NCBI GenBank assembly: GCA_048938855.1
Contig: JBHLLT010000005.1
Span: 1-64,000 of the forward strand
DNA: 64,000 nucleotides
Direction of reading: 5' to 3'
Source: Promethearchaeota archaeon
GTDB lineage: Archaea; Asgardarchaeota; Lokiarchaeia; Sigyniarchaeales; SOKP01
This document shows, in pieces, positions 38,852-51,946 of the stretch; positions within the stretch are counted from its first letter, which is position 1; each line of letters begins with the position of its first letter. Below the pieces are notes generated by a model. It did not search any database, was not told where the DNA came from, and saw only the letters and a program-made list of their open reading frames with translations. Position numbers and translations under genes: made by a program.

Positions 38852-39715
38852 CTAAAATCCTTCTAATAATTCTTTAGCTTTAACTCGATGAAAATTAAAC
38901 CCTAGTTCTTCAGGTTTAAAACCAAAAGCAAGTGCTACTAGTTCCGAAAGATAGAAAACTGGAAAATCATAACCAACTTCTTTATCTTTACTCAATTCTC
39001 GTTGATTAAAATCAAATTGTTGAAAACATGCTGGACATACAAGGGTGATACAATTTGCCCCTGATTCCTGGATGGATTTGAATTTATTATCGATCATTTT
39101 AAGTGAGATGTCCTTATCTGATTTCTCAAGAGGATTTCCACAACATTCCATTTTCATCTCGTAATCTAAGGAATCTGCCCCTAATGCTCTAACAATTTCA
39201 TCAATAGTTAATGGATTAAAAGGATCATCCCAATTAATAACCTCAGAAGGTCTTAAATAATGACACCCATAATGAACTGCTACTTTAAATCCGTTTAACG
39301 GATGTACTACGTTCTCTCTAACTTTATCAAGGTTTTCATATAGAACCTGAGCAAAATGCTTTACTTCTGTGGTTCCATCATATTTTTTCCCAACTTTCTT
39401 TAAAATGGTATTTACTTCATCCTTGACTTCTGAATCATTTCTAATACTGTAATTCACTCCTTTAAGAGTTTCTACACACCCAGAACAAAATGATACAATT
39501 CCGCCATTATTATTTGATAAACTTAAATTTCTAGCTCCTAATGCTAACCAGGTTTTATGATCTATAAGTTCTATCCCTGTAGGATCGGGACAACAACTGA
39601 ATCCATCAACATCGTTTAATTTAATTCCCAACTTCTCAAATATTTTTCTTGAGGATGCTTCTAAGAATGGAAGCCTCGCTGGAATCACACACCCTAAAAA
39701 TAAATCATACGACAT
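38852..39715 (-). CDS. hdrB: heterodisulfide reductase subunit B
   Basis: FLGC, SCCP, HYGCHYLRP, CCG, CPACFQQFD. Confidence 0.92.
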   Translation of the reverse strand: MSYDLFLGCVIPARLPFLEASSRKIFEKLGIKLNDVDGFSCCPDPTGIELIDHKTWLALGARNLSLSNNNGGIVSFCSGCVETLKGVNYSIRNDSEVKDEVNTILKKVGKKYDGTTEVKHFAQVLYENLDKVRENVVHPLNGFKVAVHYGCHYLRPSEVINWDDPFNPLTIDEIVRALGADSLDYEMKMECCGNPLEKSDKDISLKMIDNKFKSIQESGANCITLVCPACFQQFDFNQRELSKDKEVGYDFPVFYLSELVALAFGFKPEELGFNFHRVKAKELLEGF

Positions 39716-39718
39716 TTT

Positions 39719-40216
39719 TTATGCCCCCTCCTTTGGTATATTACTTTCAAAATTAGTTTCTTTTAATATCTTCTTAATTTCATCAACAGGTGCTGTTTTT
39801 ATTGATGGAAGTCCCAATTTCTCCCGTCTGGTTATAATGGCTTTCGAGTATGGAAGCGCAACTCCGTTTTCGAGAACAGCTCTTCCTTGTGAGATAAAAG
39901 CCTCAGGAACATTCCCCGTATCAAAGCACTTATTTTTGATTAATGTAAAAATTTCAGTTAGCTCGACTTTTTGAGGACATAACTCAACACAAGTCTGACA
40001 AGTAGAACAAAGCCAAGGATTAGGATCTTGCTTTTCTACCAGCTTATCTTGTAATCCTAAAATGGCTTCTTCAATAATCTTTCGAGGATTATAACTTCCT
40101 TGAGTAATCAGAGCAACAGGGCAACCACCACTACAAGTACTACATTGATAGCAGTAGCTTAAAGAAGCATTATGTTTCAATACCTCATTTCGAAACTCAA
40201 AATTTATTACAGACAT
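39719..40216 (-). CDS. hdrC: heterodisulfide reductase subunit C
   Basis: CYQCSTCSGGCP, WLCSTCQTCVELCP. Confidence 0.92.
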   Translation of the reverse strand: MSVINFEFRNEVLKHNASLSYCYQCSTCSGGCPVALITQGSYNPRKIIEEAILGLQDKLVEKQDPNPWLCSTCQTCVELCPQKVELTEIFTLIKNKCFDTGNVPEAFISQGRAVLENGVALPYSKAIITRREKLGLPSIKTAPVDEIKKILKETNFESNIPKEGA

Positions 40217-40448
40217 GTCTAAAAGTTTTAATTTCCATCTACTTAGATGGTTAGTAAAATAATAGAGATTTAATAAATTTTTTAGAAAATTTCAATAACC
40301 AAATCGTTTATATTAGTTATACATTATCGAAATCATTAGCTTCATAGCCCAAATTGACAACCACATTCCCCTAATCGAATATTTCTTTTAATGTTGGTAA
40401 TTTTTTGTTCCCTGGTTTTTGGAATGATACATAAAAAATAAATTTGCT

Positions 40449-40634
40449 GATCAAGGGCGATCATAAACCCTTAAAATTGTTTAAGAATTCTAATTATAGT
40501 TTTCATGATCGATCATAAAAATCATTCTGATCGATCTCAGTAATTTTAATGATTCTTTATGAAAAAAAATGCTTTTTTTCTCTATGACTGATCAAGATCT
40601 ATCACATGGATCCAATAATCGACATCACATGATC
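40449..40634. promoter_or_regulatory. GATC-dense regulatory region (10 GATC in 186 bp) between hdrC and a divergent small ORF
   Basis: GATC at 40449, 40459, 40507, 40511, 40529, 40533, 40590, 40596, 40609 and 40631. Confidence 0.6.
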
Positions 40635-40782
40635 GATTTTTTCACTAAATATCATTTTCGAAACATAAAATGTCGAAAAGCGGTAATATTTAAATATGAA
40701 AAGTGATAATTATATTTTAGTGATAAATTATAATTAATATTATGAGAAGTTTTATAAAAAATTAATATATAATTTATAAGAA

Positions 40783-41052
40783 GTGATAAAAAAAATGTGT
40801 AATAATTGTAATTGCGATTCATATGACCAATGTTCTATAGTAGGTTATATGCCCATTGGATTCTGTTGTACTAGGTGCTATCTATATGATGAGGTGCACA
40901 CATGTCTAGAATGCTCGGTGAAAGGGAAAGTCTCGAAAATTGAGGCTGTTAGTGCGAAAATTGAAGATGGCGTTTTAAAAGTCGTAGTTAAGAAGGATGA
41001 GAAGGAAGTACCTTTAATAATTGACTTAGATAAACAGCTTGGTTCTGAGTAG
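40783..41052 (+). CDS. small Cys-rich protein with HSP20-like C-terminal motif
   Basis: 9 Cys in first 44 aa; VSAKIEDGVLKVVVKK; start could be ATG at 40795. Confidence 0.7.
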   Translation: MIKKMCNNCNCDSYDQCSIVGYMPIGFCCTRCYLYDEVHTCLECSVKGKVSKIEAVSAKIEDGVLKVVVKKDEKEVPLIIDLDKQLGSE

Positions 41053-41098
41053 AATTTAAAATAATTATTTATGATATTTTCCTTTGTTCGAGTTACTT

Positions 41099-41143
41099 GA
41101 TCAGTTCCCTGACAAACCCTTGAATAGAATGAGTGTGTGAGGT
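41099..41143 (+). repeat. 45-bp element, copy 1 (inverted copy at 49239-49283)
   Basis: GATCAGTTCCCTGACAAACCCTTGAATAGAATGAGTGTGTGAGGT; 44/45 identical to the reverse complement of copy 2. Confidence 0.92.
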
Positions 41144-41224
41144 ATTTAGTCATCGGAAAGATTTAGGGGTTCACCTATTTTTTATATGCTATCTAAATCT
41201 TATATTAAATTATTGGTTTGAGCT

Positions 41225-41656
41225 TCAAATTTTATTTCGGTCCATTATTGTTAATTCCATCACAATTTGACCCCATCCACCACATTTCAGTCCAACATCA
41301 AAGCAACTTGATCTCTTAAAACGCATATTATTTGGATTTACACCAGCCATTAGTAATTCACCAGCTGCAAATATCACTTTGTCTAATTCTGCCAATGCAT
41401 AAATACAAATTTTTTTCGGACTAAGTTTTGTTAGAAGATTCCCTGCACCATCAAAATAAAATTTATCTCCTACTTTATGTTGGCTATTACACCCATGAGA
41501 TTTTATTACTTCAATGACAAAAGTTTTTCCAATTAATTTAAATGAATTTGATAACACATCATGATTTCGGGGATTTTCAAGAAATAACTCCAATTCTTCA
41601 GTGGTATAACCGAAATTATTCTTAATATTTTCTTTCATCTCCTCACTAATTTTCAT
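41225..41656 (-). CDS. conserved hypothetical Cys-containing protein (TIGR04076-like)
   Basis: GCNSQHKVGDKF, ICIYAL, SCFDVG..CGGWG. Confidence 0.65.
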   Translation of the reverse strand: MKISEEMKENIKNNFGYTTEELELFLENPRNHDVLSNSFKLIGKTFVIEVIKSHGCNSQHKVGDKFYFDGAGNLLTKLSPKKICIYALAELDKVIFAAGELLMAGVNPNNMRFKRSSCFDVGLKCGGWGQIVMELTIMDRNKI

Positions 41657-41660
41657 AAAT

Positions 41661-42776
41661 TCACCGCTTTTTAGTTTGTGCTAATTCTGCTTTTGCATTC
41701 ATAATCGCTATGTAAGTTTCCTTTGTGTTCGATGGTGGTATTACTTCTAACTCGTTCTTTACTAATTTTATCGCATCTTCGGGACATGTAGGAATGCATA
41801 CTCCACACCCAATACATCTCTCTAAATTTATTTGACTTAAATCCTCAATTATGGATATCGCATCCATATTACATCTCTCCTCACAAGTTCCACATCCTAA
41901 ACATAAATCACTATCAATAGTTGCATGGAAATTAGTTGCAAAAAGTCTAGCAGGGTTATCAAAACGTTTTTGATTTGTTAATACTTCACAACAGCAACCA
42001 CAACAATTACATATTACAAAAGGTTTTTGAGAATTTGATGGTTGAGGTACTAAGCCAACTTCTTCAAACTCCCTTATTAATTCATAGGCTTTTTCTTTTG
42101 AAATGAACTCCGCTTCTCCTTTTTCATAGAATGTTTTAGCGGCAGATCCAAATGTCATACATGTTTTTCTGAGATCTGTTTTTTTACAAGGATCATCAAT
42201 CATATCATGGGCTTTACGACAAATACAATCCATTATACCAATATAGCTGGACATGTCAATTATTTCTCGAATCTGATCGTATGAGGCAATATTCATATCA
42301 ACAAGAACAGCTTTTTCAACTGGGATAGTGCGCAGTTGAGGAATACCTGAGATGTTATATTCCTTTTCAAAATAAGCTTCTTTGAAATACTGAAAGACAT
42401 TAGTTATCAATTCTGGAGTAAGACGACCTAATTGGAATTCATATATGCCAGGAACAAAAGGAGCCAGCAAAAATAATTTTTCACCATTATTCAACGCCCT
42501 TATAATAGTACCTTTTTCATACATCTTTTCTAATTTATTTTCTAATTCTTCTAAAGATAGATCTTTATTCCTTAATTTCCGATGAACTTTTTTTAGCTGC
42601 TGTGGTGTAAAGTTGAGCTTCATAGCCAATTGCGCTTCTTCTTCAGTAAATAACAATTTTAATATTTCAATTTCAACTCCGGAATTAGAAGTTGGAAGTC
42701 CTACAGGCATTTTATTAATATAATCTAACAATTCAAAATAAATACTATTAGATTCACTCATTTTGTATATCACCAT
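41661..42776 (-). CDS. 4Fe-4S ferredoxin-domain protein (paralog of 21804..22922)
   Basis: CICRK, CNCCGCCC, two CxxCxxCxxxC motifs. Confidence 0.85.
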   Translation of the reverse strand: MVIYKMSESNSIYFELLDYINKMPVGLPTSNSGVEIEILKLLFTEEEAQLAMKLNFTPQQLKKVHRKLRNKDLSLEELENKLEKMYEKGTIIRALNNGEKLFLLAPFVPGIYEFQLGRLTPELITNVFQYFKEAYFEKEYNISGIPQLRTIPVEKAVLVDMNIASYDQIREIIDMSSYIGIMDCICRKAHDMIDDPCKKTDLRKTCMTFGSAAKTFYEKGEAEFISKEKAYELIREFEEVGLVPQPSNSQKPFVICNCCGCCCEVLTNQKRFDNPARLFATNFHATIDSDLCLGCGTCEERCNMDAISIIEDLSQINLERCIGCGVCIPTCPEDAIKLVKNELEVIPPSNTKETYIAIMNAKAELAQTKKR

Positions 42777-42809
42777 TTTATGAATTATATAAAAAGCTCT
42801 TTATAATCG

Positions 42810-42844
42810 TTAATCGATCAAAAACAACTAAATTTAAGTTGTAA
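42810..42844. promoter_or_regulatory. candidate operator, copy 1 (copy 2 at 44959-44993)
   Basis: TTAATCGATCAAAAACAACTAAATTTAAGTTGTAA; 32/35 identical to copy 2; contains dyad ACAACT-N7-AGTTGT. Confidence 0.65.
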
Positions 42845-42923
42845 TTCGATTGCTTTTTCTCTCAGAAAAGAAATTTTATTGTTCAATAACCTTAATGATT
42901 TACAATAAGAAATTGAAAAAAAA

Positions 42924-43265
42924 TTATAATTTATCAAGTTTTTGCAATTTTAGCATTTCAGGCATGGTAGCTTTTAATTTTATTTTCTTTTGCTGGTATG
43001 CCTTAAAACCCGATATTTCTTTTTTTGCCAAAGCTATAAATGTTTCTGTACTCATTATATATTCAATATCTGGGTTCTCAATTTTTCCTTCGACAACAGG
43101 TCCAGGTTGGCCATTGACAAGTTTGAGGTTATAATACTCATCTATGTCAGTAAAATGATATTGCAAGATTTTATTCCAATTCTTAAAACTTTTAACAACT
43201 TTCTCATGAGTATATTTCTTGGATTGCTCATCAAGATATTTTAATAATTCTTCTTTATCAACCAT
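42924..43265 (-). CDS. SCP2 sterol/lipid-binding domain protein
   Basis: EGKIENPDIEYIMSTETFIALAKKEISGFKAYQQKKIKL. Confidence 0.8.
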   Translation of the reverse strand: MVDKEELLKYLDEQSKKYTHEKVVKSFKNWNKILQYHFTDIDEYYNLKLVNGQPGPVVEGKIENPDIEYIMSTETFIALAKKEISGFKAYQQKKIKLKATMPEMLKLQKLDKL

Positions 43266-43298
43266 TCAAAGCACCATAATTACATTAATTGAAATTGA

Positions 43299-43559
43299 TC
43301 ATCCATAAGTAAATTTCACGCCTGTACCACCAACAGGTTCACCAAAAATAACAGCATCAACTTCGCATACATTCCAACAAGCACCGCATTCTACACATTG
43401 TTTTAGATTTGAAGGTCGATAAACATTACCATCCTGTTGCCATACATCACGAGTACAAAACTTAGCGCACAAACCGCAACCTGTGCATTTCTCTTCATCG
43501 ACTTTTATAAATTCTCCCGTGTCACCGGGATAATAATCTACAATCATTTCTATCTTCAT
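43299..43559 (-). CDS. ferredoxin (FixX-like)
   Basis: CTGCGLCAKFC, CVECGACWNVC, C-terminal GGTGVKFTYG; overlaps FixC-like stop. Confidence 0.88.
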   Translation of the reverse strand: MKIEMIVDYYPGDTGEFIKVDEEKCTGCGLCAKFCTRDVWQQDGNVYRPSNLKQCVECGACWNVCEVDAVIFGEPVGGTGVKFTYG

Positions 43560-44881
43560 TTTGATCGCCTCTTTTCATAGATATCGTTGAAATCTGTTCC
43601 AACTTGCCTATAAGGTTGAATAAACTCGAGAAAATCGTATGCTTCTGTTACAAGGTCCATATCATCTTCTTCTGCTCCTGTAATCCACTTATTATGTATA
43701 ACATTTGTAATGAAACCTCCAGAAATTACGACGTTTTGTATCATTTCTGATATTTCTTTATCGGTTTTTGATAAAATCGATTCTTTGTTCATTTGTCCAA
43801 CATAATGAAAAGACTGCATGAAGGTATTTTGCTCCAGTAATTCTTCATATGTTTCGCTTAGTTTTTGTTCAGACAAATTTTTGGTTTCAATTGCCTCTTT
43901 AGCTGCTTTTGCAGCATAGATCCCAGTAAAAAATGCTTCTGGCATCCCTTCGCCCAAAAAGGGTATAACAAATCCTCCAGCTTCGCCAGTTAAAATAAGA
44001 CCATTTTTAACTCTCTTTTCTAAGGGCTCATCATATTCTAAATGGAGCCCCCACGCAACAATTTTTCCTCCCTCGAGTTTTTTCTTTACGATTGGTAGAT
44101 TAAGAAAATTCTCCATATATGTATTTACGGATGGGAAATTTGCATTGAGAAGATTTTGATCCATATATCCCCCTGTTCCTATCGTCACTACTTCTCTTTT
44201 AGGAAATATCCAAGGCCATGTCTTGTATTGTATCCCGGGCGCGAGATAATATTCAATACAATCACCAAAACGTTCATCTATCACTTCTTTGCCTAAATGA
44301 ACAGCAACAGTAACATATAAGATCATATTTGTTCCAGATCTTTTCGTTATTAATCCCGCTTTTCTACCAACTATTGAATTAACACCCCCAGCATCAATAA
44401 CTACTTTACAGTAAAATTTTTCTCCAGAATCGGTCACCACCCCTTTAATATATCCATCTTCTTCTATTATATCTACAATGGTTGTCCCTAATTTTACTTC
44501 TGCCCCTGCTTTCTCAGCTTGTTCCGTGTGCCATGCATCAAAATGATCTCTGCGTACAGACAATAAGAGAATTCCTCCCGTAGGAATTTCATGGATTGTA
44601 GTTGATCGATCTTCAGTAATATGATGCATTCTAATTTCACTTATTTCTCTCTCAACTGGACCTTCCATAATATAGTGTAAATCTGGGTCAATTAAAGCAG
44701 CCGCATTTAAACAGGTTCCCGAGACATTTTTTTCTCCAGGAACTTGAGATTTTTCAAGTAATAAAACTTTCAATCCCAGTTCCGCAGCTTTTTTTGCAGC
44801 AGCAGGACCGGCACATCCTGCACCAATAACGAGGCAATCATATTCATTTTTATTCATCTTAATATTCATCCTTCCTTGCAA
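43556..44881 (-). CDS. FixC / geranylgeranyl reductase-like FAD oxidoreductase
   Basis: IGAGCAG, PGEKNVSG, RRDHFDAW, WIFPK, GEAGG..PFLGEG; true start may be a downstream Met. Confidence 0.85.
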   Translation of the reverse strand: MQGRMNIKMNKNEYDCLVIGAGCAGPAAAKKAAELGLKVLLLEKSQVPGEKNVSGTCLNAAALIDPDLHYIMEGPVEREISEIRMHHITEDRSTTIHEIPTGGILLLSVRRDHFDAWHTEQAEKAGAEVKLGTTIVDIIEEDGYIKGVVTDSGEKFYCKVVIDAGGVNSIVGRKAGLITKRSGTNMILYVTVAVHLGKEVIDERFGDCIEYYLAPGIQYKTWPWIFPKREVVTIGTGGYMDQNLLNANFPSVNTYMENFLNLPIVKKKLEGGKIVAWGLHLEYDEPLEKRVKNGLILTGEAGGFVIPFLGEGMPEAFFTGIYAAKAAKEAIETKNLSEQKLSETYEELLEQNTFMQSFHYVGQMNKESILSKTDKEISEMIQNVVISGGFITNVIHNKWITGAEEDDMDLVTEAYDFLEFIQPYRQVGTDFNDIYEKRRSK

Positions 44882-44958
44882 TAAAATAATTATCAGAAAC
44901 TACTTTCACTTTTAAATTTTGTATGAGATTCCGATATATAAGAATCTCTATGTAATGA

Positions 44959-44993
44959 TTAATTGATCAAAAACAACTAGATTTAAGTTATAA
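44959..44993. promoter_or_regulatory. candidate operator, copy 2, in the divergent fixC-like/trmB promoter
   Basis: TTAATTGATCAAAAACAACTAGATTTAAGTTATAA. Confidence 0.65.
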
Positions 44994-45009
44994 ATCATAT
45001 TGATGAATA

Positions 45010-45921
45010 TTGATGTCTGATTTCTTATTAGAAGATTTAAAAGAATTTTTGAATGATGCAAATCTCTCGACCTATGAAGTTAATGCGTATATTGCTCTTC
45101 TAACATCCTCAAGAATGAATCTTCCATCTGCTAGAGAAATTTCTTCAGAATCAGGCGTACCAAGTGGTAGAATTTATGAAGTTTTGGAAGAATTAAATAC
45201 TAAGGGACTAATCGAAATCGTTGAATCACGTCCAAAAAAATATAAGGCTTATTCTCTGAATAAAGGTTTAGATAATTTAATTAAATACCAATCAACTGAA
45301 ACTAAAAGAAAAATTGATCATCTTCACAATCGAGCAAAATTACTTGAATCAGAATTGTATAAAGCTGAGGTTTTTATTCACAAAGAGCCTTCGAAGATAT
45401 TTTGGTCCACAGCTTTCGGTACTCAATCAATTCTCTCTTTATATGCAAAATATATTAATGAAGCGAAAGAAGAGATCATTTTTAATGAATTTATCAATAA
45501 AAGCACCTTGAAAGTATTACCATTTGGAAAAGTAATTTATGAGCCCATGAGAAAAGCAGTCGAACGAGGTGTAACCGTTAAGGATCTTTGGTCTTTCGAG
45601 TATGATGAACGTCCATTATCTAAAGAAGAACAGATTCAAAATGCTAACATATTTAAAGAAATTATTAAAATTCAAGAAGATCTTTATGATCTATCCCCTA
45701 AATTACCAGGATTTAAAATGAAATATATCTTTCATAGAACTCCAACTTATTTTGATATATTTGATAAAAGGAGAATTGTTTTTAAGCTGCAAAATCCTCT
45801 TAAGCCATACCAGATTTTTGCTACCATGAATGTGGTAGATCCTATTTTAGCTAAGGATCTAAGAGCTAAATACCTCCAAATGTGGACCTTTGATGCACTT
45901 GACGCAGAAGGGTTTCTATAA
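45010..45921 (+). CDS. TrmB family transcriptional regulator
   Basis: LSTYEVNAYIALL..SAREISSESGVPSGRIYEVLEELNTKGLI..RPKKY. Confidence 0.88.
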   Translation: MMSDFLLEDLKEFLNDANLSTYEVNAYIALLTSSRMNLPSAREISSESGVPSGRIYEVLEELNTKGLIEIVESRPKKYKAYSLNKGLDNLIKYQSTETKRKIDHLHNRAKLLESELYKAEVFIHKEPSKIFWSTAFGTQSILSLYAKYINEAKEEIIFNEFINKSTLKVLPFGKVIYEPMRKAVERGVTVKDLWSFEYDERPLSKEEQIQNANIFKEIIKIQEDLYDLSPKLPGFKMKYIFHRTPTYFDIFDKRRIVFKLQNPLKPYQIFATMNVVDPILAKDLRAKYLQMWTFDALDAEGFL

Positions 45922-46149
45922 TTCCCACGCGGAATGTCGTAAAATTGCACCTGTTGGGCACACATCTTGGCAAGCCATACAATCAGTGCATTCCCCAATA
46001 TTTTCTGCAATTACTTTCCCATCTACTAATTCATAAACTTCAACTGGACACGAATTAATACAATCTTCAGCTCCAATGCATTTATCCAAGTCAATCTCAA
46101 CCCAATGATCTTCTTCCTCCCACTTTTTAATATCAGTCATTAAAAACAC
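45916..46149 (-). CDS. ferredoxin
   Basis: CIGAEDCINSCP, CTDCMACQDVCP; probable start at the Met at 46140 after GGAG. Confidence 0.88.
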   Translation of the reverse strand: MFLMTDIKKWEEEDHWVEIDLDKCIGAEDCINSCPVEVYELVDGKVIAENIGECTDCMACQDVCPTGAILRHSAWEL

Positions 46150-46299
46150 AACTCCTACAATAATATTGTTAAATCTATTATATGGTTTATTTAATTAAGT
46201 CTAACTAAAAGTTATAAATCTAATTGTTATAAAAATATTTATATTTGTACAATAAGTTCATAATAATAGACTAGTAAGATATTAAAGGCAATTAATAGA

Positions 46300-47055
46300 T
46301 TAATTGACCTTTTGAATCTTATCTCTCAATTCTAATACTCTTTCAGGTAAATTCGAAAAGATAGCATCGACGTATTCTCCATTATATTTCATATTAAGGA
46401 AATTGTTTATTGACCTTTCAAACAAGATACCCCATATATAAAACTTAAAACCCATATCTTTAACTTTCCTAAATAAATCGTAATTTGCGTAATTAAAATT
46501 AACATTAATTCCTTGGACATTAAGCTTTCTCATATTCTCTAATTCTAAGTGCTCCTCTTTAATATTTGTATGCTTTAAGAAAATAGAATTAACTAATGTA
46601 ACATTCTGATTAAACTCTCTAATCTTAGAAAAGATAGTTGGAAGAGGGTGGGGGTATGTGGAAGGTTTTGCAATTTCTATTTTATTACCTAAATTAAATT
46701 TTTCAGCAAGTTCAATTATTTTTATGCCTACTTCGGGTTCAATTATGTCAAAGTGATACTTTATATTATATTCTTTAAATTCCTTGAAAACTTCACGAAG
46801 AGTTGGGATTGTCTCACCATTCTCTAATTTAAACCCTTTAATCTCTTCGATTGTTAACTCACTCATTCGAACATCGTTTCCATTTCTTTTAAGACTTTCA
46901 TAAAAACTTAGAACTATTTCTCCCTCTTTTGATAATTTAGCCTCTGTTTTTAAACCATCGACGCCCATCTCTATTGCATTCTGAAATGAAGAGAGGGTGT
47001 TTTGTACACCTGTAAATCCAGCACCTCTATGACCCCAAATAAATGTTTTATGCAA
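46300..47055 (-). CDS. glycerophosphodiester phosphodiesterase family protein (divergent)
   Basis: GHRGA, NTLSSF, IPTLREV, VDAIFSNLP; usual E-x-D metal motif appears as KTE. Confidence 0.8.
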   Translation of the reverse strand: MHKTFIWGHRGAGFTGVQNTLSSFQNAIEMGVDGLKTEAKLSKEGEIVLSFYESLKRNGNDVRMSELTIEEIKGFKLENGETIPTLREVFKEFKEYNIKYHFDIIEPEVGIKIIELAEKFNLGNKIEIAKPSTYPHPLPTIFSKIREFNQNVTLVNSIFLKHTNIKEEHLELENMRKLNVQGINVNFNYANYDLFRKVKDMGFKFYIWGILFERSINNFLNMKYNGEYVDAIFSNLPERVLELRDKIQKVN

Positions 47056-47587
47056 CAGTTAACACCTCCTGTTCTTTACTAATTTCTAAACCTAATTTAA
47101 GTAAATCAAAATAAACTACACCATATTGTAAATCGCCCTCAAATTTAAGATTCCCTGCAAAAAACTCACTAAAAGCATCTGCATTTCCAAGAAGAATTTG
47201 ATTCATTGTCTTTTGAGGACAGGTTATAAAGATATTTGCCCCTTCTATTTCGCCTTTCCCACACTTAAATTCTCCTTCGCCAAAAACAACCCAATAATTA
47301 AAGTCTGAATTGAACAATTTTGTTTGAACAATATTTTTTTTTAAAAAACCCAACTCTCCAAAAAATTCATCGTTTTCGCTGGCTAAATTCTCAAGAATTT
47401 TGTTAGATTCCATAATTCTTTTATTAACACAGCAGTTCTCACAAATAAATTCACTTAATGAAATAATTCCACAATTATCCATGTAACATTCCCACTGATT
47501 TGTTTCATGGTTAACGGTAATACTATATCCGCATTGCAATGGCAGAGTCTCTACTACTTTACCACATCTACTACATGTTAAACTCAT
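47048..47587 (-). CDS. Cys-rich N-terminal domain fused to SCP2 domain
   Basis: 8 Cys in first 53 aa; GNADAFSEFFAGNLKFEGDL SCP2 signature. Confidence 0.78.
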   Translation of the reverse strand: MSLTCSRCGKVVETLPLQCGYSITVNHETNQWECYMDNCGIISLSEFICENCCVNKRIMESNKILENLASENDEFFGELGFLKKNIVQTKLFNSDFNYWVVFGEGEFKCGKGEIEGANIFITCPQKTMNQILLGNADAFSEFFAGNLKFEGDLQYGVVYFDLLKLGLEISKEQEVLTVA

Positions 47588-47925
47588 TTTAATATCACCA
47601 TTTTAGTATAAATTTCATATAGATTCCACTAATAACTTAAGTTATTAAGTATCATCATTATTTTTTAAGTAGAAAAGAAAGAAAACGATAATTTTCCTAA
47701 CGTCTTTTGTGAAAATATTTTATAAGATATTATTATGAATAAAAAATGGTATGATTTTAGCTCTAACGCCCCATTAAATACTTAAATTAAAAAAGTAAGT
47801 ATTGTTCAATAGACAAATGTACATTTAAATACTTGATACGTTATTATTAGCATGAAATTTAATGCTGCACCATTACAAACTAATTATTAAATTTTAATTT
47901 AAATAGGAATGAAGGGTGATTAAAA

Positions 47926-48384
47926 ATTTCAGGTGAATTAACCCGAATTAGAAGAAACTATACAAATTGGGATAGTTGGTTAGGTATCGCTTACATTATT
48001 CTTGGAATAATAGATGTCATCTTTATCTTATTTGGAATCATATATAATTTCCTGCTATATCAAATCTTATCATATGTTTTCACTATTACAATTTCCATAC
48101 TCGTCTATCTTTTCCTTAAAGGAAGAATTTCATTCAAAAAGAAATCTACAGAATACAACCTATTAACAAAGCAACAAATTTACAACTATTTAAAAACAAA
48201 TGCTACAAATACTTATACCGCAGAAATGATACTGATAGATCTAAAAGAAAACATACATGACAAGGCATTTAAAAGGTTTGTAATCAAGCATTATCATTAC
48301 ATCCTAGCAGAAATGCTTACAGATAAACTAATTGAAACTACTAAAAGAAATGGACTAGAACTCTATTTTTTCCCAAGCTCATAA
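47926..48384 (+). CDS. 2-TM membrane protein with C-terminal winged helix; non-canonical ATT start; absent from ORF track
   Basis: 152 sense codons open; GGGTGA SD 6 nt upstream; in-frame TGA at 47917 excludes an earlier start; T-run after stop. Confidence 0.7.
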   Translation: MSGELTRIRRNYTNWDSWLGIAYIILGIIDVIFILFGIIYNFLLYQILSYVFTITISILVYLFLKGRISFKKKSTEYNLLTKQQIYNYLKTNATNTYTAEMILIDLKENIHDKAFKRFVIKHYHYILAEMLTDKLIETTKRNGLELYFFPSS

Positions 48385-48613
48385 TAATTTTTTTTTCTTT
48401 TTTTGTAAATCAATACCTGAATCATACAACTTTTATATATCTTTAAATTGCCAAAAGCGGGGAAAAAAACAAAAACTTATACCAGCATCAGATATAATAC
48501 CTAAAAGTATTTGTCCCTATTGGGGTAAATCAATTTCACTTAACGCTAGCTTTTGTAGTAAGTATGGCAAAATTATCAAAAATAATATTCCATGAGAGAA
48601 TATTTATTTAATT

Positions 48614-48832
48614 GATCAATATACTATAATCCGTGATTGATTTCGCCATTGATGATCATTTTGCTATATTTAATTTTACAATTATTGACATTCAATCAAG
48701 TATATTTTCTATATGTGACTACTTACCAAAATTAATCTAGATTGATATCGGCGATGAATGATCATCTCCATTATCTCTATATTTACAATTAGTCATATAG
48801 ATTATCTAAAACGATCATATTTATATACGATC
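48614..48832. promoter_or_regulatory. second GATC-enriched upstream region (ATTGATCAAT, ATGATCAT x2, ACGATCAT x2)
   Basis: GATC at 48614, 48654, 48760, 48813 and 48829. Confidence 0.5.
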
Positions 48833-48866
48833 ATTTACATAAGTTACTTGAGGTGAGTAAGTTATT

Positions 48867-49133
48867 ATGAACAGTTTAAAATCGAAAGAAAAAGCAGTCA
48901 AAAATTTTGAAAATATAAAAGACGCCTTAAGAGGTTTATATGACATTTTGGATCTAACTCTGAGTGATAATGAATTTTATTATGAGGCGGGGAAGGACAA
49001 TATTACCGCAGTGTATAAGAATCTTATCGAGCTATTGTTGAATGAGTATGGACTCAGGAATCTTTTAAAGAAGATCCAAAACTCTGAAGTTGAATTAAAC
49101 ATTGTACTGAACGAGTTTTTAGCAAATGCGTAA
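48867..49133 (+). CDS. small helical hypothetical protein (88 aa)
   Basis: Strong SD GAGGTGA, ATG start, amphipathic helical pattern. Confidence 0.75.
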   Translation: MNSLKSKEKAVKNFENIKDALRGLYDILDLTLSDNEFYYEAGKDNITAVYKNLIELLLNEYGLRNLLKKIQNSEVELNIVLNEFLANA

Positions 49134-49206
49134 GAACTCTTATTTCGAATTTTAATTTTTCTTACAAACTAATATTAATGAACTAAACTAAACACGCAAT
49201 TTTACC

Positions 49207-49283
49207 ATCAGTTCCCTGTGCGTAAGCTTTGAGTACTCACCTCACACACTCATTCTATTCAAGGTTTTGTCAGGGAACTGATC
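49207..49283 (-). repeat. 45-bp element copy 2 (49239-49283) inside a 76-nt hairpin with 12-bp terminal inverted repeat; candidate structured RNA
   Basis: ATCAGTTCCCTG (49207-49218) / CAGGGAACTGAT (49271-49282); inner GTGTGTGAG/CTTACGCAC stem pairs fully only on the minus strand (G-U). Confidence 0.85.
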
Positions 49284-49430
49284 TTTTCTCTTTTAAATTT
49301 ACATCACGGCTGAAAAAATTAACAGATAGAAGTTTCAAAATATATCAGAAAGTTCATTTAAATTTAAAAAAAAATCTCGATTTTTACTGATTTAGTAAAA
49401 TTTTCTAATGTTCCCTCCAATAAGAAATCA

Positions 49431-49486
49431 ACCCTCCTTTTTGAGAAAGGGTCTCTCTTTAAAAAAAAAAAAATAAAAAAAAAAAG
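49431..49486 (-). terminator. long T-tract with adjacent imperfect hairpin, likely terminator of 49567..50082
   Basis: ACCCT..AGGGT dyad and ~24 A on + strand (T-run on -). Confidence 0.5.
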
Positions 49487-49566
49487 AATTTAGGAATGAA
49501 GTAAATATGAAATTAATGTTCCAATAATGCATTTACTTTTAACGCTAGTTTTAACCATTAAACCTC

Positions 49567-50082
49567 CTAAAAATGTATCAATTTTATTATATCGGTACCT
49601 TCAAAACCTTTACCATCAATCAATTCTCCAGTAATGGTTATAGTACAGAATCCTAGGGACGGAAGTACATTTTTAACTGAAGCTCTGTTAAATTTGACCA
49701 TTAATTCTAAATGATTATTGAATTCAAGAATTTCAGATTTTGGCTCAGCAGGTATTAATTCATTTAGTAAAACCGAGTCCAGAACTATATTATTAACATC
49801 ATATCCCATGCTTAATGAAATATATACAGTGATCCATTTACCTTTACTTTTAAAGTTTAATGCATCTGGATCAACGTTAATATTTGCTTGTATGGGATCA
49901 CCAGGTTTTTCTTCACCTGGTTTTTCCTCACCAGGAACATTGTCAGGTTTAGTACCATCAAAAGTATTATCTTTTGAATATTGTGCTTCTCCTAAGAATA
50001 TGCCCAAACATGCTGGAAATCCTATCCCCAACCCTATAATAATTAACCCCGAAATTATTTTTTTCATAAAACTCACTAACAA
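49567..50082 (-). CDS. membrane-anchored/secreted protein with PGEEK repeats and beta-rich C-terminal domain
   Basis: N-terminal hydrophobic helix, PGEEKPGEEKPG linker, VDPDALNFKSKGKWITVYI domain. Confidence 0.75.
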   Translation of the reverse strand: MLVSFMKKIISGLIIIGLGIGFPACLGIFLGEAQYSKDNTFDGTKPDNVPGEEKPGEEKPGDPIQANINVDPDALNFKSKGKWITVYISLSMGYDVNNIVLDSVLLNELIPAEPKSEILEFNNHLELMVKFNRASVKNVLPSLGFCTITITGELIDGKGFEGTDIIKLIHF

Positions 50083-50410
50083 GTAAAATTAAGGCAAAAT
50101 GCAAATGGTGTTTTACATATATAAATCTATGCTAAAATTTCAATCCATTTGTCATTTTATTCGCGGAAATTAATGGAAAATCGTATTCTAAAAAATTCCT
50201 AATATCTTTTTCCTTTTTTTCCTATGAATTGGGGAAAAATATGTTTACATTTCAGTAAAACTAAATTATAAAAAAATTTTGTAAAATAAAAAAGGCTAAA
50301 TTTATTATAATAATGTATATTTTAAGCGGCAATAGTTTTGATATCTTAATAATCTTAATATCTAATAATCTGAAACATCACTTCCAACTGACTTCTTATT
50401 TGATTATAAA

Positions 50411-50797
50411 CTATTTCCTGTATGTGGGATTTTTGATATCCCTTTCTCTAATCGTCGATACAAGATTATGAAAATTTTCTTTAAAATTTATCAGATTTGA
50501 ATATTCACGAAATTTTAAATAAGGGTTATAAAGAAAACTGACAATCTTGAATCTTCCTTTTCTAGGAAGCCATTTTTTTTCAGAGATCTCATTATAAAGC
50601 CTAAATAAGGCCTGATCTGATTTTAATCCTAATTTTATGGAGGTCATATAGATTCTTACCATTTGAGATTCATTTTCTTTACGTTTTAATAATTTTATTT
50701 GAATTTCAAATTGAATAAAATACGGGGATCTTAGTTTAACAATTAATTTGTCATGTAATAATCCTCTAATCAGAGGAATAGATATTGTTAAAATCAT
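50411..50797 (-). CDS. basic hypothetical protein
   Basis: 128-aa ATG ORF filling otherwise empty DNA; no motifs. Confidence 0.45.
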   Translation of the reverse strand: MILTISIPLIRGLLHDKLIVKLRSPYFIQFEIQIKLLKRKENESQMVRIYMTSIKLGLKSDQALFRLYNEISEKKWLPRKGRFKIVSFLYNPYLKFREYSNLINFKENFHNLVSTIRERDIKNPTYRK

Positions 50798-50926
50798 GTA
50801 GATTATAATTAATCTTGATGATTAGATTACATTTGTTATATTATTCTAATTAGTCTTAAGAAAAAGAATAAAATTTTTATAAAATAATCCTATATTTAAA
50901 ATCCCGTATAACATAGAAAATCCTAA

Positions 50927-51946
50927 TTGGTGAGTTTCATTTCTCAAACAATTTTAAAATTAGAAAATGTTTCTAAGAAGTTTGGAAATTTAACAGCTGT
51001 TAACAATATAAGTATAGAAGTTAAAAAAGGTGAAGTAATTGGATTTGTTGGGCCAAATGGAGCTGGTAAAACCACAACATTAAAATTAATTGCGAGACTA
51101 ATCAGACCAACTTCTGGAGAAATTTACATATTAAACAACCAGGATAAATTACAAAATCTTAAAGAAAAATTCGAAAATCTTGTCGATATGGGTTTCTTGA
51201 TAGATATTCCTCATTTTTACAATTCAACACCTTATCAATTATTAAAATATGTTGGAAATCTTAAGAATTATCCTAAAAAGAAATTAAAACTAAGAATTGA
51301 TCAATTATTGACATCCTTTAATTTAATTAGATGGAAATATAAGAAGGTCAAAAATTTCTCCAAAGGAATGAATCAGAAATTAGGGTTTATCGCAGCAATT
51401 ATTCATGATCCTGAAATTATAATATTAGATGAACCTCAAACTGGATTAGATCCTATTGCTCGAATTAATGTACGAAAGAATATAAAAGAACTTCAAAAAA
51501 ATGGAAAAACTATATTTATTTCTTCTCATATGTTATTTGAAATTACTGAAGTTTGTGATAAAATTGCATTAATAAATGAAGGCTCAATTATTGCATTTGA
51601 TACTTTAGAAAATCTAGAGAATTTACTTGTGACTAAGGAAATTGTCTGTGAACTTTCAAAACCAATCACAATAGAAAAAAAAGACTCAATAATAACAAAA
51701 CTCGTTCAACATCTTGAACCGTACTTAGATATAACAATTTCAGAAAATCCTGTTATATATAATCCACAAGAGAAGAAAATCATTATCTATTATAATGGTA
51801 AACAGGAATCAAGATCTGAGATATTAAACATTTTAATTAATGAATTTAAATCAGAATTTGCTATTGATTCATTCTCTAAACCAAAAACGTCTCAACTAGA
51901 GAAATTATATACTCAATTAATAAATGGAAATAAAAAAAAAACATAA
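50927..51946 (+). CDS. ABC-2 type transporter ATP-binding protein
   Basis: GPNGAGKTT, FSKGM, ILDEP, SSH. Confidence 0.92.
   Translation: MVSFISQTILKLENVSKKFGNLTAVNNISIEVKKGEVIGFVGPNGAGKTTTLKLIARLIRPTSGEIYILNNQDKLQNLKEKFENLVDMGFLIDIPHFYNSTPYQLLKYVGNLKNYPKKKLKLRIDQLLTSFNLIRWKYKKVKNFSKGMNQKLGFIAAIIHDPEIIILDEPQTGLDPIARINVRKNIKELQKNGKTIFISSHMLFEITEVCDKIALINEGSIIAFDTLENLENLLVTKEIVCELSKPITIEKKDSIITKLVQHLEPYLDITISENPVIYNPQEKKIIIYYNGKQESRSEILNILINEFKSEFAIDSFSKPKTSQLEKLYTQLINGNKKKT

Follow-up and report, generated by a model that had tools for sequence, protein, structure and literature searches.

Plasmid R1 carries the hok/sok type I toxin-antitoxin system, in which the hok mRNA folds back on itself (fbi/tac): its 3′ end pairs with the 5′ translation-initiation region, and the message stays untranslated until that 3′ end is removed or displaced. 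In the par locus of pAD1 in Enterococcus (RNA I/RNA II, Fst toxin), complementarity is supplied by direct repeats of a second RNA. A third kind of control is found in the bacterial RNAs RsaE/RoxS and CcsR/‘Cuckoo’, whose hairpin loops carry a C/U-rich sequence complementary to G-rich ribosome-binding sites. Asgard archaea are the closest prokaryotic relatives of eukaryotes; to our knowledge, almost nothing is known about their post-transcriptional control, and few cis-acting elements of 3′ UTRs are on record for any archaeon. Here we describe a locus of a Lokiarchaeia genome where, as in hok, an element at the 3′ side of a gene is complementary to the gene’s own 5′ translation-initiation region, in this case over 11 nt, perfectly and with covariation. 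The gene encodes a small protein, p88, and the element, EL, would make the locus a compact and well-delimited case of post-transcriptional control, open to experiment.

A repeat, a hairpin and two small proteins

The window, by which we mean the whole stretch of 64,000 nucleotides that was analysed, comes from a 97%-complete Lokiarchaeia (Asgard archaea) genome of 3.95 Mb in 93 contigs. An initial annotation, made from the letters alone, had pointed out a 45-bp sequence present on opposite strands (41099-41143, plus; 49239-49283, minus) with 44/45 identical positions, and this was borne out, with shuffled sequences giving no such repeat. The accompanying open reading frames (40783/40795-41052 and 48867-49133) are present, and the distances that it gave from them to the repeat, 46 and 105 nt, were correct. 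The genome-wide blastn check that it proposed for the 45-mer, run together with a covariance model on all 93 contigs, returned 2 copies, no more, at the same locus. The repeat reaches 54 nt at 91% once mismatches are allowed, and identity between the copies stops abruptly at the ends of the 45-mer. The GATC with which the element was said to begin is there in the source sequence but is not conserved, CTGACC standing at that spot in most relatives.

The annotation described the two sites as twin modules, which holds insofar as both repeats are present, but only one of them belongs to a complete hairpin. This is EL (49207-49282, plus strand), which is 76 nt long, is conserved in relatives and has a minimum free energy of −31.6 kcal/mol (z −7.3). 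The P1 stem pairs 49207-49218 with 49271-49282, and an inner stem follows, and then a 20-nt loop that contains the segment UACUCACCUCA (49234-49244). Read from the sequence, a terminator-like T-rich run lies 3′ of the hairpin (49284-49299, plus strand), and in most EL copies this tail is CCCTTTT(A)CTTTTT. Across the relatives, EL comes immediately after p88, in the same orientation, starting 55-110 nt beyond the p88 stop codon, as a two-stem hairpin of about 76 nt followed by a U-run. At each of three positions of P1, six sequences have U-G wobbles that would become C-A mismatches on the opposite strand; because they fit the p88 sense strand only, that is the strand on which EL acts. Covariation within the stems is weak since the stems are nearly invariant. 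EL occurs in 24 of the 54 genomes of the genus and in 3 of 42 of a sister genus. Each of these genomes has 1-6 copies, all at a single locus, and searches of the three further families of the order did not find it. A scan of 39000-51000 against Rfam 15 gave no match at E up to 1, and a tRNA search of the region found none. This pattern is best explained if EL is a structured RNA, specific to the lineage and produced from the p88 sense strand.

The second site (41099-41143, minus strand) holds a partial copy made up only of the loop remainder, the P2 3′ arm and the P1 3′ arm. Read in the EL sense it has neither the 5′ arm nor the U-run; it sits 46 nt beyond the stop codon of a gene for a Cys-rich protein, antisense to that gene, and its score with the covariance model is low (E 4.7e-7, 41087-41185, minus strand). 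This copy is missing the left portion of the 11-mer described below and is unable to mask the p88 Shine-Dalgarno (SD) sequence. Every EL-bearing relative has one copy at the equivalent place beside the Cys-rich gene. We dropped an assignment of this copy as the 3′ element of a same-strand 143-aa open reading frame (41225-41656), because the minus-strand neighbour varies by species while the Cys-rich gene is constant. A plus-strand hairpin suggested for this site (41115-41125 with 41161-41171) is absent from the minimum-energy fold, and the region is shuffle-like in folding (z −0.04). The half-copies in genomes G005, G066 and G008 do fold into long hairpins.

The initial annotation was wrong to call the two products orphan microproteins, as both are conserved in Promethearchaeota. 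The p88 gene (48867-49133, plus strand) encodes an 88-aa helical protein with homologues in 79 protein clusters; orthologues of at least 74% identity are present in 21 of the 54 genomes of the genus. The annotation had proposed asking whether homologues keep the element, and EL is present in every one of the 21 genus genomes that have a true p88 orthologue. Distant homologues (45-55% identity) are without EL and without the GAGUA extension of the SD sequence. The predicted model (pLDDT 89) describes p88 as a soluble helical protein and found no fold match in the PDB. The Cys-rich gene (40795-41052, plus strand; 41 of 54 genus genomes) encodes an 85-aa protein of 104 protein clusters, all of Promethearchaeota type. 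According to alignment and model, its N-terminal half has eight invariant Cys, with no confident fold predicted, and its C-terminal domain has three strands. Neither protein drew a lead from the ESM Atlas or Pfam. A type I toxin-antitoxin pair was rejected for want of a small hydrophobic membrane toxin, p88 being soluble and helical by model and the other protein Cys-rich and not hydrophobic.

Pairing between the hairpin loop and the p88 ribosome-binding site

The loop segment UACUCACCUCA is the exact 11-nt complement of UGAGGUGAGUA, the SD segment of p88 (48849-48859, plus strand), which lies about 385 nt upstream. This 11-mer occurs in the genome only twice, at the p88 SD and, in reverse-complement form, within the loop of EL. 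The calculated duplex energy is −18.6 kcal/mol for the loop with the SD, as against −11.5 for the SD with the 16S tail. One metagenome scan yielded 7 loci. In an alignment of 29 loci, 99.1% of the cells are paired and breaks occur at the terminal pair only. One pair changes from G-C to G-U (2 loci) and on to A-U (2 loci), another from U-A to C-G (1 locus), and two further changes are wobbles; the covariation amounts to two independent double changes and four wobble cells, most of the 29 loci being invariant. Where G changes to A in the SD, pairing with the loop is restored and pairing with the 16S tail is weakened. In 7-26 of 500 trials, shuffles did as well as the real alignment when the whole structure was scored. 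The loop and the 16S tail have UCACCUC in common, and because the loop so resembles the anti-SD, some complementarity is expected with any strong SD. Matches of 8 nt to the loop are found at about 25 genes genome-wide and the 11-nt match at p88 only, no other gene exceeding 8 nt. Judging from the alignment, the long-range pairing is maintained by compensatory changes and G-U intermediates. The pairing of GAG/GUGAGUA with AUACUCACCU also looks like that of a eukaryotic 5′ splice site with the 5′ end of U1 snRNA, a curiosity without functional support.

Since its loop is complementary to the ribosome-binding site of p88, EL is probably a regulator of that gene's translation rather than a mobile element or a switch that flips DNA. 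In the model that we favour, with a probability of roughly 0.55, EL represses p88 translation through this pairing. Read-through past the T-runs after the stop codon would yield p88 transcripts with EL in their 3′ UTR; such transcripts would fold 5′ end to 3′ end, masking the ribosome-binding site, so that translation is repressed or timed, and transcripts that are shorter, or have the loop occupied, would be translated. T5-T6 runs lie between the p88 stop codon and EL and could terminate most p88 transcripts ahead of it. The Cys-rich gene is the ancestral convergent neighbour, and its read-through transcript would be antisense to EL. In the source genome, the EL loop and 3′ arm still have a 45-nt complement in the 3′ flank of the Cys-rich gene, which could therefore compete for the loop, and the convergent transcript possibly modulates the repression.

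Two other readings of EL also begin from an RNA hairpin. It might be a backstop terminator or insulator between convergent genes, copied along with inserted DNA, the match between loop and SD being functionless; we regard this as unlikely but worth keeping in view. A hairpin with a U-run in a convergent intergenic region would suit a terminator, archaeal genes often end at T-runs, and traces of the p88 3′ end persist in additional copies, a pattern that segmental duplication would produce. A plain terminator, however, would not be expected to keep a 20-nt loop sequence invariant across two genera, nor a match of 11 nt that is unique genome-wide and whose changes are compensated or wobble-neutral, and the GAGUA extension of the SD is found together with EL. 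Somewhat more doubtful is the idea that EL is an independent small RNA gene, transcribed from a promoter of its own and acting in trans on the p88 ribosome-binding site, in the manner of the bacterial anti-SD-loop sRNAs. The evidence from loop-SD pairing serves it as well as it serves our favoured model, the mRNA may stop short of EL, at the T-runs that follow the p88 stop codon, and some clades have an A/T-rich TATA-like box 23-35 nt before the first stem. Yet no promoter element has conserved sequence or spacing across clades, EL is constantly right behind p88 on the same strand, and only a single gene genome-wide has a match longer than 8 nt.

Gene layout, inversion and GATC boxes

In genomes G059, G075, G096 and G114, p88 and the Cys-rich gene are convergent with one common EL, and in many public MAGs the two genes have adjacent locus tags. 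Among relatives, 13 layouts have direct copies, 4 a single copy and 2 inverted copies (G000 and G011), the inverted arrangement being confined to the source genome and one sister species. The cargo between the copies ranges from 0.4 to 17 kb, its content depending on the clade. Comparison of these layouts indicates that the ancestral one is a convergent gene pair with one common hairpin. The 8-kb bracketing in the source genome is then best explained as a by-product of insertions between the genes and a lineage-specific inversion of the p88-EL module.

The initial annotation had offered a different account, in which 41144-49238, a segment of lipid and redox genes, is a DNA switch that flips between the two copies, these serving as inverted recombination sites. 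The 44/45 inverted repeat does bracket that segment, and the near-identity of the copies suggests exchange between them, but the prevalence of direct and single-copy layouts fails to support such a switch. The cargo has the same orientation in both ‘inverted’ species, and the change from direct to inverted requires breakpoints outside the repeats. The annotation itself had reported no recombinase in the window, and rightly: a profile search of the source genome for serine recombinases (PF00239) gave no match, and the only tyrosine recombinase (PF00589) lies on another contig, C57. We consider the switch hardly credible, and with it a false lead, the inverted repeats around the lipid/redox genes, is removed. 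It is scarcely more probable, and still very improbable, that EL is the site of a mobile or integrative element (a MITE, an att core or an attC-like cassette site) with integrated cargo between its copies. The clade-specific cargo of variable length, the sharp break of identity at the 45-mer ends and genome G003, where six EL copies lie behind unrelated genes, would all fit such a site; the six copies are nevertheless within one locus, as are the 1-6 copies of every genome. On its left side, the duplicated piece begins anywhere from within the loop to as far as 90 nt into the p88 coding sequence, and there is therefore no fixed core. Nor is there an integrase near the locus, an Rfam match, or a target-site duplication common to the flanks of the EL copies that were compared. 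A MITE or REP-type dispersed repeat was rejected because there are 2 copies here and 1-6 in relatives, at a single locus, and an integron attC site because the locus contig has no tyrosine recombinase and the cargo genes carry promoter-like regions of their own.

Both small genes have GATC sites upstream, ten and five, as the initial annotation had counted. The ten sites of array 1 (40449-40634; TGATCA and GATCGATC boxes), between a divergent hdrC-like operon and the Cys-rich gene, form the densest GATC cluster genome-wide (the runner-up has 6 per 200 bp), with boxes at conserved positions in 7 species. A predicted TATA box of the Cys-rich gene, TTTAAATA (40689-40696, plus strand), is an invariant block in the 7-species alignment. 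Array 2, with five sites in 48614-48832, is at chance level by count alone, since the genome has 24 clusters with 5 or more sites per 200 bp; the boxes of this array are nevertheless conserved in relatives. It belongs to a p88 upstream region (48608-48834) conserved across 8 species, which includes a TTAATTGATCAA box (48608-48619), two GATCAT boxes (48813-48818 and 48829-48834) on either side of the TATA box TTTATATA (48820-48827), and further GATCA boxes. A paralogue in the source genome has an upstream region resembling that of p88. The TTAATYGATCAA box has five intergenic occurrences genome-wide, three of them within the locus, including one in the Fer4 (371-aa) operon's promoter region (42810-42821, part of direct repeat D4) and one, at 44959-44970, between a FixC-like operon and a TrmB-family gene (45010-45921). 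TGATCA-type palindromes showed no intergenic enrichment in a genome-wide count. These GATC-centred boxes of both genes and the two intervening operons probably bind one transcription factor. A Dam-type methylation switch such as that of pap or agn43 was rejected: the profile of D12-class methyltransferases (PF02086) had no match in the 97%-complete genome, and control genomes gave matches.

The annotation’s other proposal, a structured RNA under a GATC-reading factor, came nearer, in that a conserved RNA-strand hairpin is tied to both genes in about 25 species and both promoters have conserved GATC boxes; it missed the difference between partial and complete copies, the pairing of the loop with p88 and the ancestral convergent layout. 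These elements could be joined in a three-layer circuit, in which a GATC-box factor co-transcribes both genes, end-pairing locks the p88 message and the antisense 3′ end of the Cys-rich gene opens the lock. We offer the circuit as speculation, improbable in its entirety; if it were true, p88 would be made only while both genes are transcribed, and it would be the first switch of mRNA end-pairing and antisense release in Asgard archaea.

Comparison with known systems

EL appears to represent an uncatalogued RNA hairpin family whose loop co-evolves with the ribosome-binding site of the preceding gene, and which is linked to two conserved Promethearchaeota-specific small proteins and a probable common promoter code of GATC boxes. 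With invertible switches of the fimS and hin type, the locus shares short inverted repeats around a gene-containing segment in the source genome, but it has no adjacent recombinase, the repeats in relatives are mostly direct, and they are parts of an RNA hairpin. Like RsaE/RoxS and CcsR, EL exposes a C/U-rich anti-SD sequence in a hairpin loop; unlike them, it has no evident promoter or regulon and no Rfam match, and lies within the 3′ region of its one dedicated 11-nt target. The likeness to hok is one of arrangement, EL being archaeal and without sequence homology. The hok toxin is small and hydrophobic, whereas p88 is a predicted soluble helical protein of 88 aa, and neither a Sok-like antisense gene nor a mok-like leader open reading frame was seen at the p88 locus. 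The par locus has the geometry of the single-EL layout of G059 and genus g14. It differs in its Fst toxin, toxicity not being indicated here, and in that both partners here code for conserved proteins of 85-88 aa, and the segment complementary to the SD is the terminator loop of the same gene.

Hairpin, partial copy and their conservation

The inverted 45-mer pair of the initial annotation is confirmed: the copies at 41099-41143 (+) and 49239-49283 (-) differ by one mismatch, shuffles give no match, and the repeat lengthens to 54 nt (91%) when mismatches are allowed. A genome-wide BLASTN with both copies and their flanks, as well as a covariance model built from 16 copies, found these two window copies and no third in the 3.95-Mb genome (97% complete, 93 contigs). 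The symmetry of twin modules fails; copy 2 is a complete hairpin and copy 1 is partial. The complete hairpin, here EL (49207-49282, +), lies behind p88, an 88-aa gene (48867-49133, +). Its outer stem is formed by 49207-49218 and 49271-49282 and encloses an inner stem capped by a 20-nt loop, and a T-rich run lies 3' of the hairpin; the fold energy is -31.6 kcal/mol (z -7.3), and Rfam holds no match. The U-G wobbles of the outer stem would be C-A mismatches if the other strand were read, which shows that the element works on the sense strand of its upstream gene. Copy 1, beside a Cys-rich gene (40795-41052, +), keeps just the 3' arms and part of the loop, is without the 5' arm, the U-run and the left part of the loop's p88-complementary 11-mer, folds like shuffles on either strand, and is not a working EL. 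The ORFs of 91 aa (40878-41153, -) and 53 aa (49229-49390, +) that overlap the two copies gave no Pfam hit and are unlikely to be real genes.

The EL finding is real and conserved. Sequence comparison shows EL retained in relatives, and the covariance model detects it in 24 of 54 genus genomes and 3 of 42 sister-genus genomes, with no hit in any of three further families searched within the order; each genome carries 1-6 copies, all inside one locus. The names given to matching proteins in public records put the organism within Lokiarchaeia/Promethearchaeota. True p88 orthologues occur in 21 of the 54 genus genomes, and all 21 have EL. Neither gene is the orphan that had been proposed: p88 homologues form 79 protein clusters (identity 66-100%), with ~90-aa paralogues making up a wider family, and the Cys-rich gene is found in 41/54 genus genomes. 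For p88 the structure model shows a helical bundle at high confidence (pLDDT 89) that matches no PDB fold. The Cys-rich protein, 85 aa when started at the ATG at 40795, combines eight invariant cysteines with a small beta domain; Pfam and the ESM Atlas returned no function for either protein. No EL follows one 89-aa p88 paralogue (~30% identity), which lies outside the window on contig C79 of this genome (125717-126395).

Pairing of the loop with the Shine-Dalgarno sequence

An 11-mer containing the p88 Shine-Dalgarno sequence (SD; 48849-48859) occurs twice genome-wide, the second time as its reverse complement in the EL loop (49234-49244), and the predicted loop-SD duplex reaches -18.6 kcal/mol against -11.5 for the same SD with the 16S tail. 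We aligned 29 p88 transcripts from SD to EL (this genus, its sister genus and metagenome loci) and scored 11 long-range pairs: pairing holds in 99.1% of cells and falls to about 45% when the 3' partner is shifted by one column. At pair 14:442, 25 loci have G-C, two G-U and two A-U, the loop C-to-U change standing alone in two loci and together with an SD G-to-A change in G075 and G096. Pair 22:434 reads C-G in G059 and U-A in the other 28 loci. Two more single changes are wobbles, and breakage is confined to the terminal pair. Since the G-to-A change in the SD restores loop pairing at the cost of weaker pairing to the 16S tail, the constraint appears to be loop-SD pairing and not ribosome binding. 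In this sample the double changes represent two events, most loci are invariant, and in 7-26 of 500 trials a shuffle scored as well for the whole structure. More distant p88 homologues (45-55% identity) have a plain SD, with neither the GAGUA extension nor the hairpin. The two pairing sequences, GAG/GUGAGUA (48849-48859) and AUACUCACCU (49232-49244), resemble the eukaryotic 5' splice-site consensus and the U1 snRNA 5' end, a likeness that most probably arises by chance from a Shine-Dalgarno core followed by GUA.

Locus layout and GATC boxes

Three layouts were seen. In G059, G075, G096 and G114, p88 and the Cys-rich gene are convergent, ~200 nt apart, with one EL between them; in 13 genomes p88 and its EL are followed by 0.4-17 kb of varying cargo, then a second, direct EL and the convergent Cys-rich gene; and in this genome and G011 the p88-EL module is turned round, giving an inverted repeat. 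Locus tags of the two genes are adjacent in many public MAGs. The initial annotation considered that the inverted repeats might flip 41144-49238. Cargo differs by clade. Remnants of the p88 C-terminus precede several extra EL copies, and the left boundary of the duplicated piece varies, lying in the loop at one extreme and 90 nt within the p88 coding sequence at the other, so that the extra copies fit segmental duplication and insertion instead of a fixed recombination core. Given this variable boundary, the identical cargo orientation in both inverted species and the absence of a recombinase at the locus (the genome has no serine recombinase, and its single tyrosine recombinase is on another contig), flipping is unsupported. 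The G003 locus (L009, C7:74500-94499) has six EL copies within 18 kb (at 1374, 5593, 8147, 9457, 10774 and 18582), behind a ferredoxin, a 132-aa ORF, two leucine-rich-repeat genes, p88 and a p88 remnant; several are preceded by the last p88 codons, and the locus resembles a hot spot where duplication and insertion have recurred.

GATC enrichment, claimed upstream of both genes, holds by count for one. Against a genome-wide rate of 3.0 per kb, array 1 (10 sites in 40449-40634) is the genome's densest cluster, the runner-up having 6 per 200 bp; array 2 (5 sites in 48614-48832) is at chance by count, since the genome has 24 clusters that reach 5 per 200 bp or more. Of the other 6-site clusters, the four on other contigs are within coding sequence; the remaining one is on the same contig but falls outside the window, upstream of a p88 paralogue. 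The C79 paralogue has 8 GATC sites in 333 bp of upstream sequence apparently related to that of p88. Upstream of the Cys gene the entire region, GATC boxes included, is alignable across seven species, ~270 nt are conserved upstream of p88 with a TATA box between two GATCAT boxes, and in outgroup genomes both gene families have the same ATGATCAT box directly before TTTAAATA. As the boxes are conserved at both genes and no Dam-class methyltransferase was found in the genome, the arrays would most simply be operators for one DNA-binding factor, for which the local TrmB-family gene is a candidate by position only. TTAATYGATCAA has five intergenic sites in the genome, three of them in the locus (42810, 44959, 48608); the first two sit in a duplicated, promoter-like 62-nt segment (42786-42847 and 44935-44996, 84% identical) preceding a Fer4 operon and a FixC-like operon, and the third is upstream of p88. 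In genus members without EL (L095 and L096, from G012 and G043, and L051 and L057), the Cys and p88-like genes lie on different contigs, yet both start with the same ATGATCAT-ATTTAAATA promoter module.

Proposed masking of the ribosome-binding site

In our best reading EL RNA would mask the p88 ribosome-binding site. A cis form, in which EL would be a 3' UTR element pairing the 5' and 3' ends of one transcript, is favoured over the less likely action in trans as an sRNA: EL always stands immediately 3' of p88 and on its strand, and the aligned loci share no conserved promoter ahead of EL. Runs of T5-T6 follow the p88 stop codon and could terminate many transcripts early, yielding two isoforms, one short and translatable, the other long and self-masked. 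Read-through from the Cys-rich gene would be antisense to EL and could occupy its loop; in this genome a 45-nt EL complement lies between the Cys-gene stop codon and a U6 run (41178-41183). EL copies are more similar within genomes (0.81) than across them (0.64), which fits either gene conversion or selection for complementarity. This Cys-transcript step is weakly suggested, because copies match at only 0.62-0.68 in some clades.

EL defines a new family of RNA elements in Asgard archaea, one whose pairing partner is specific and testable. The toxin of hok and par has no counterpart at this locus. The closest analogues of EL, none of them homologous to it, are the end-pairing of hok mRNA, the bacterial sRNAs with anti-SD loops, and par (PMC4147584) with its convergent RNA I and RNA II.
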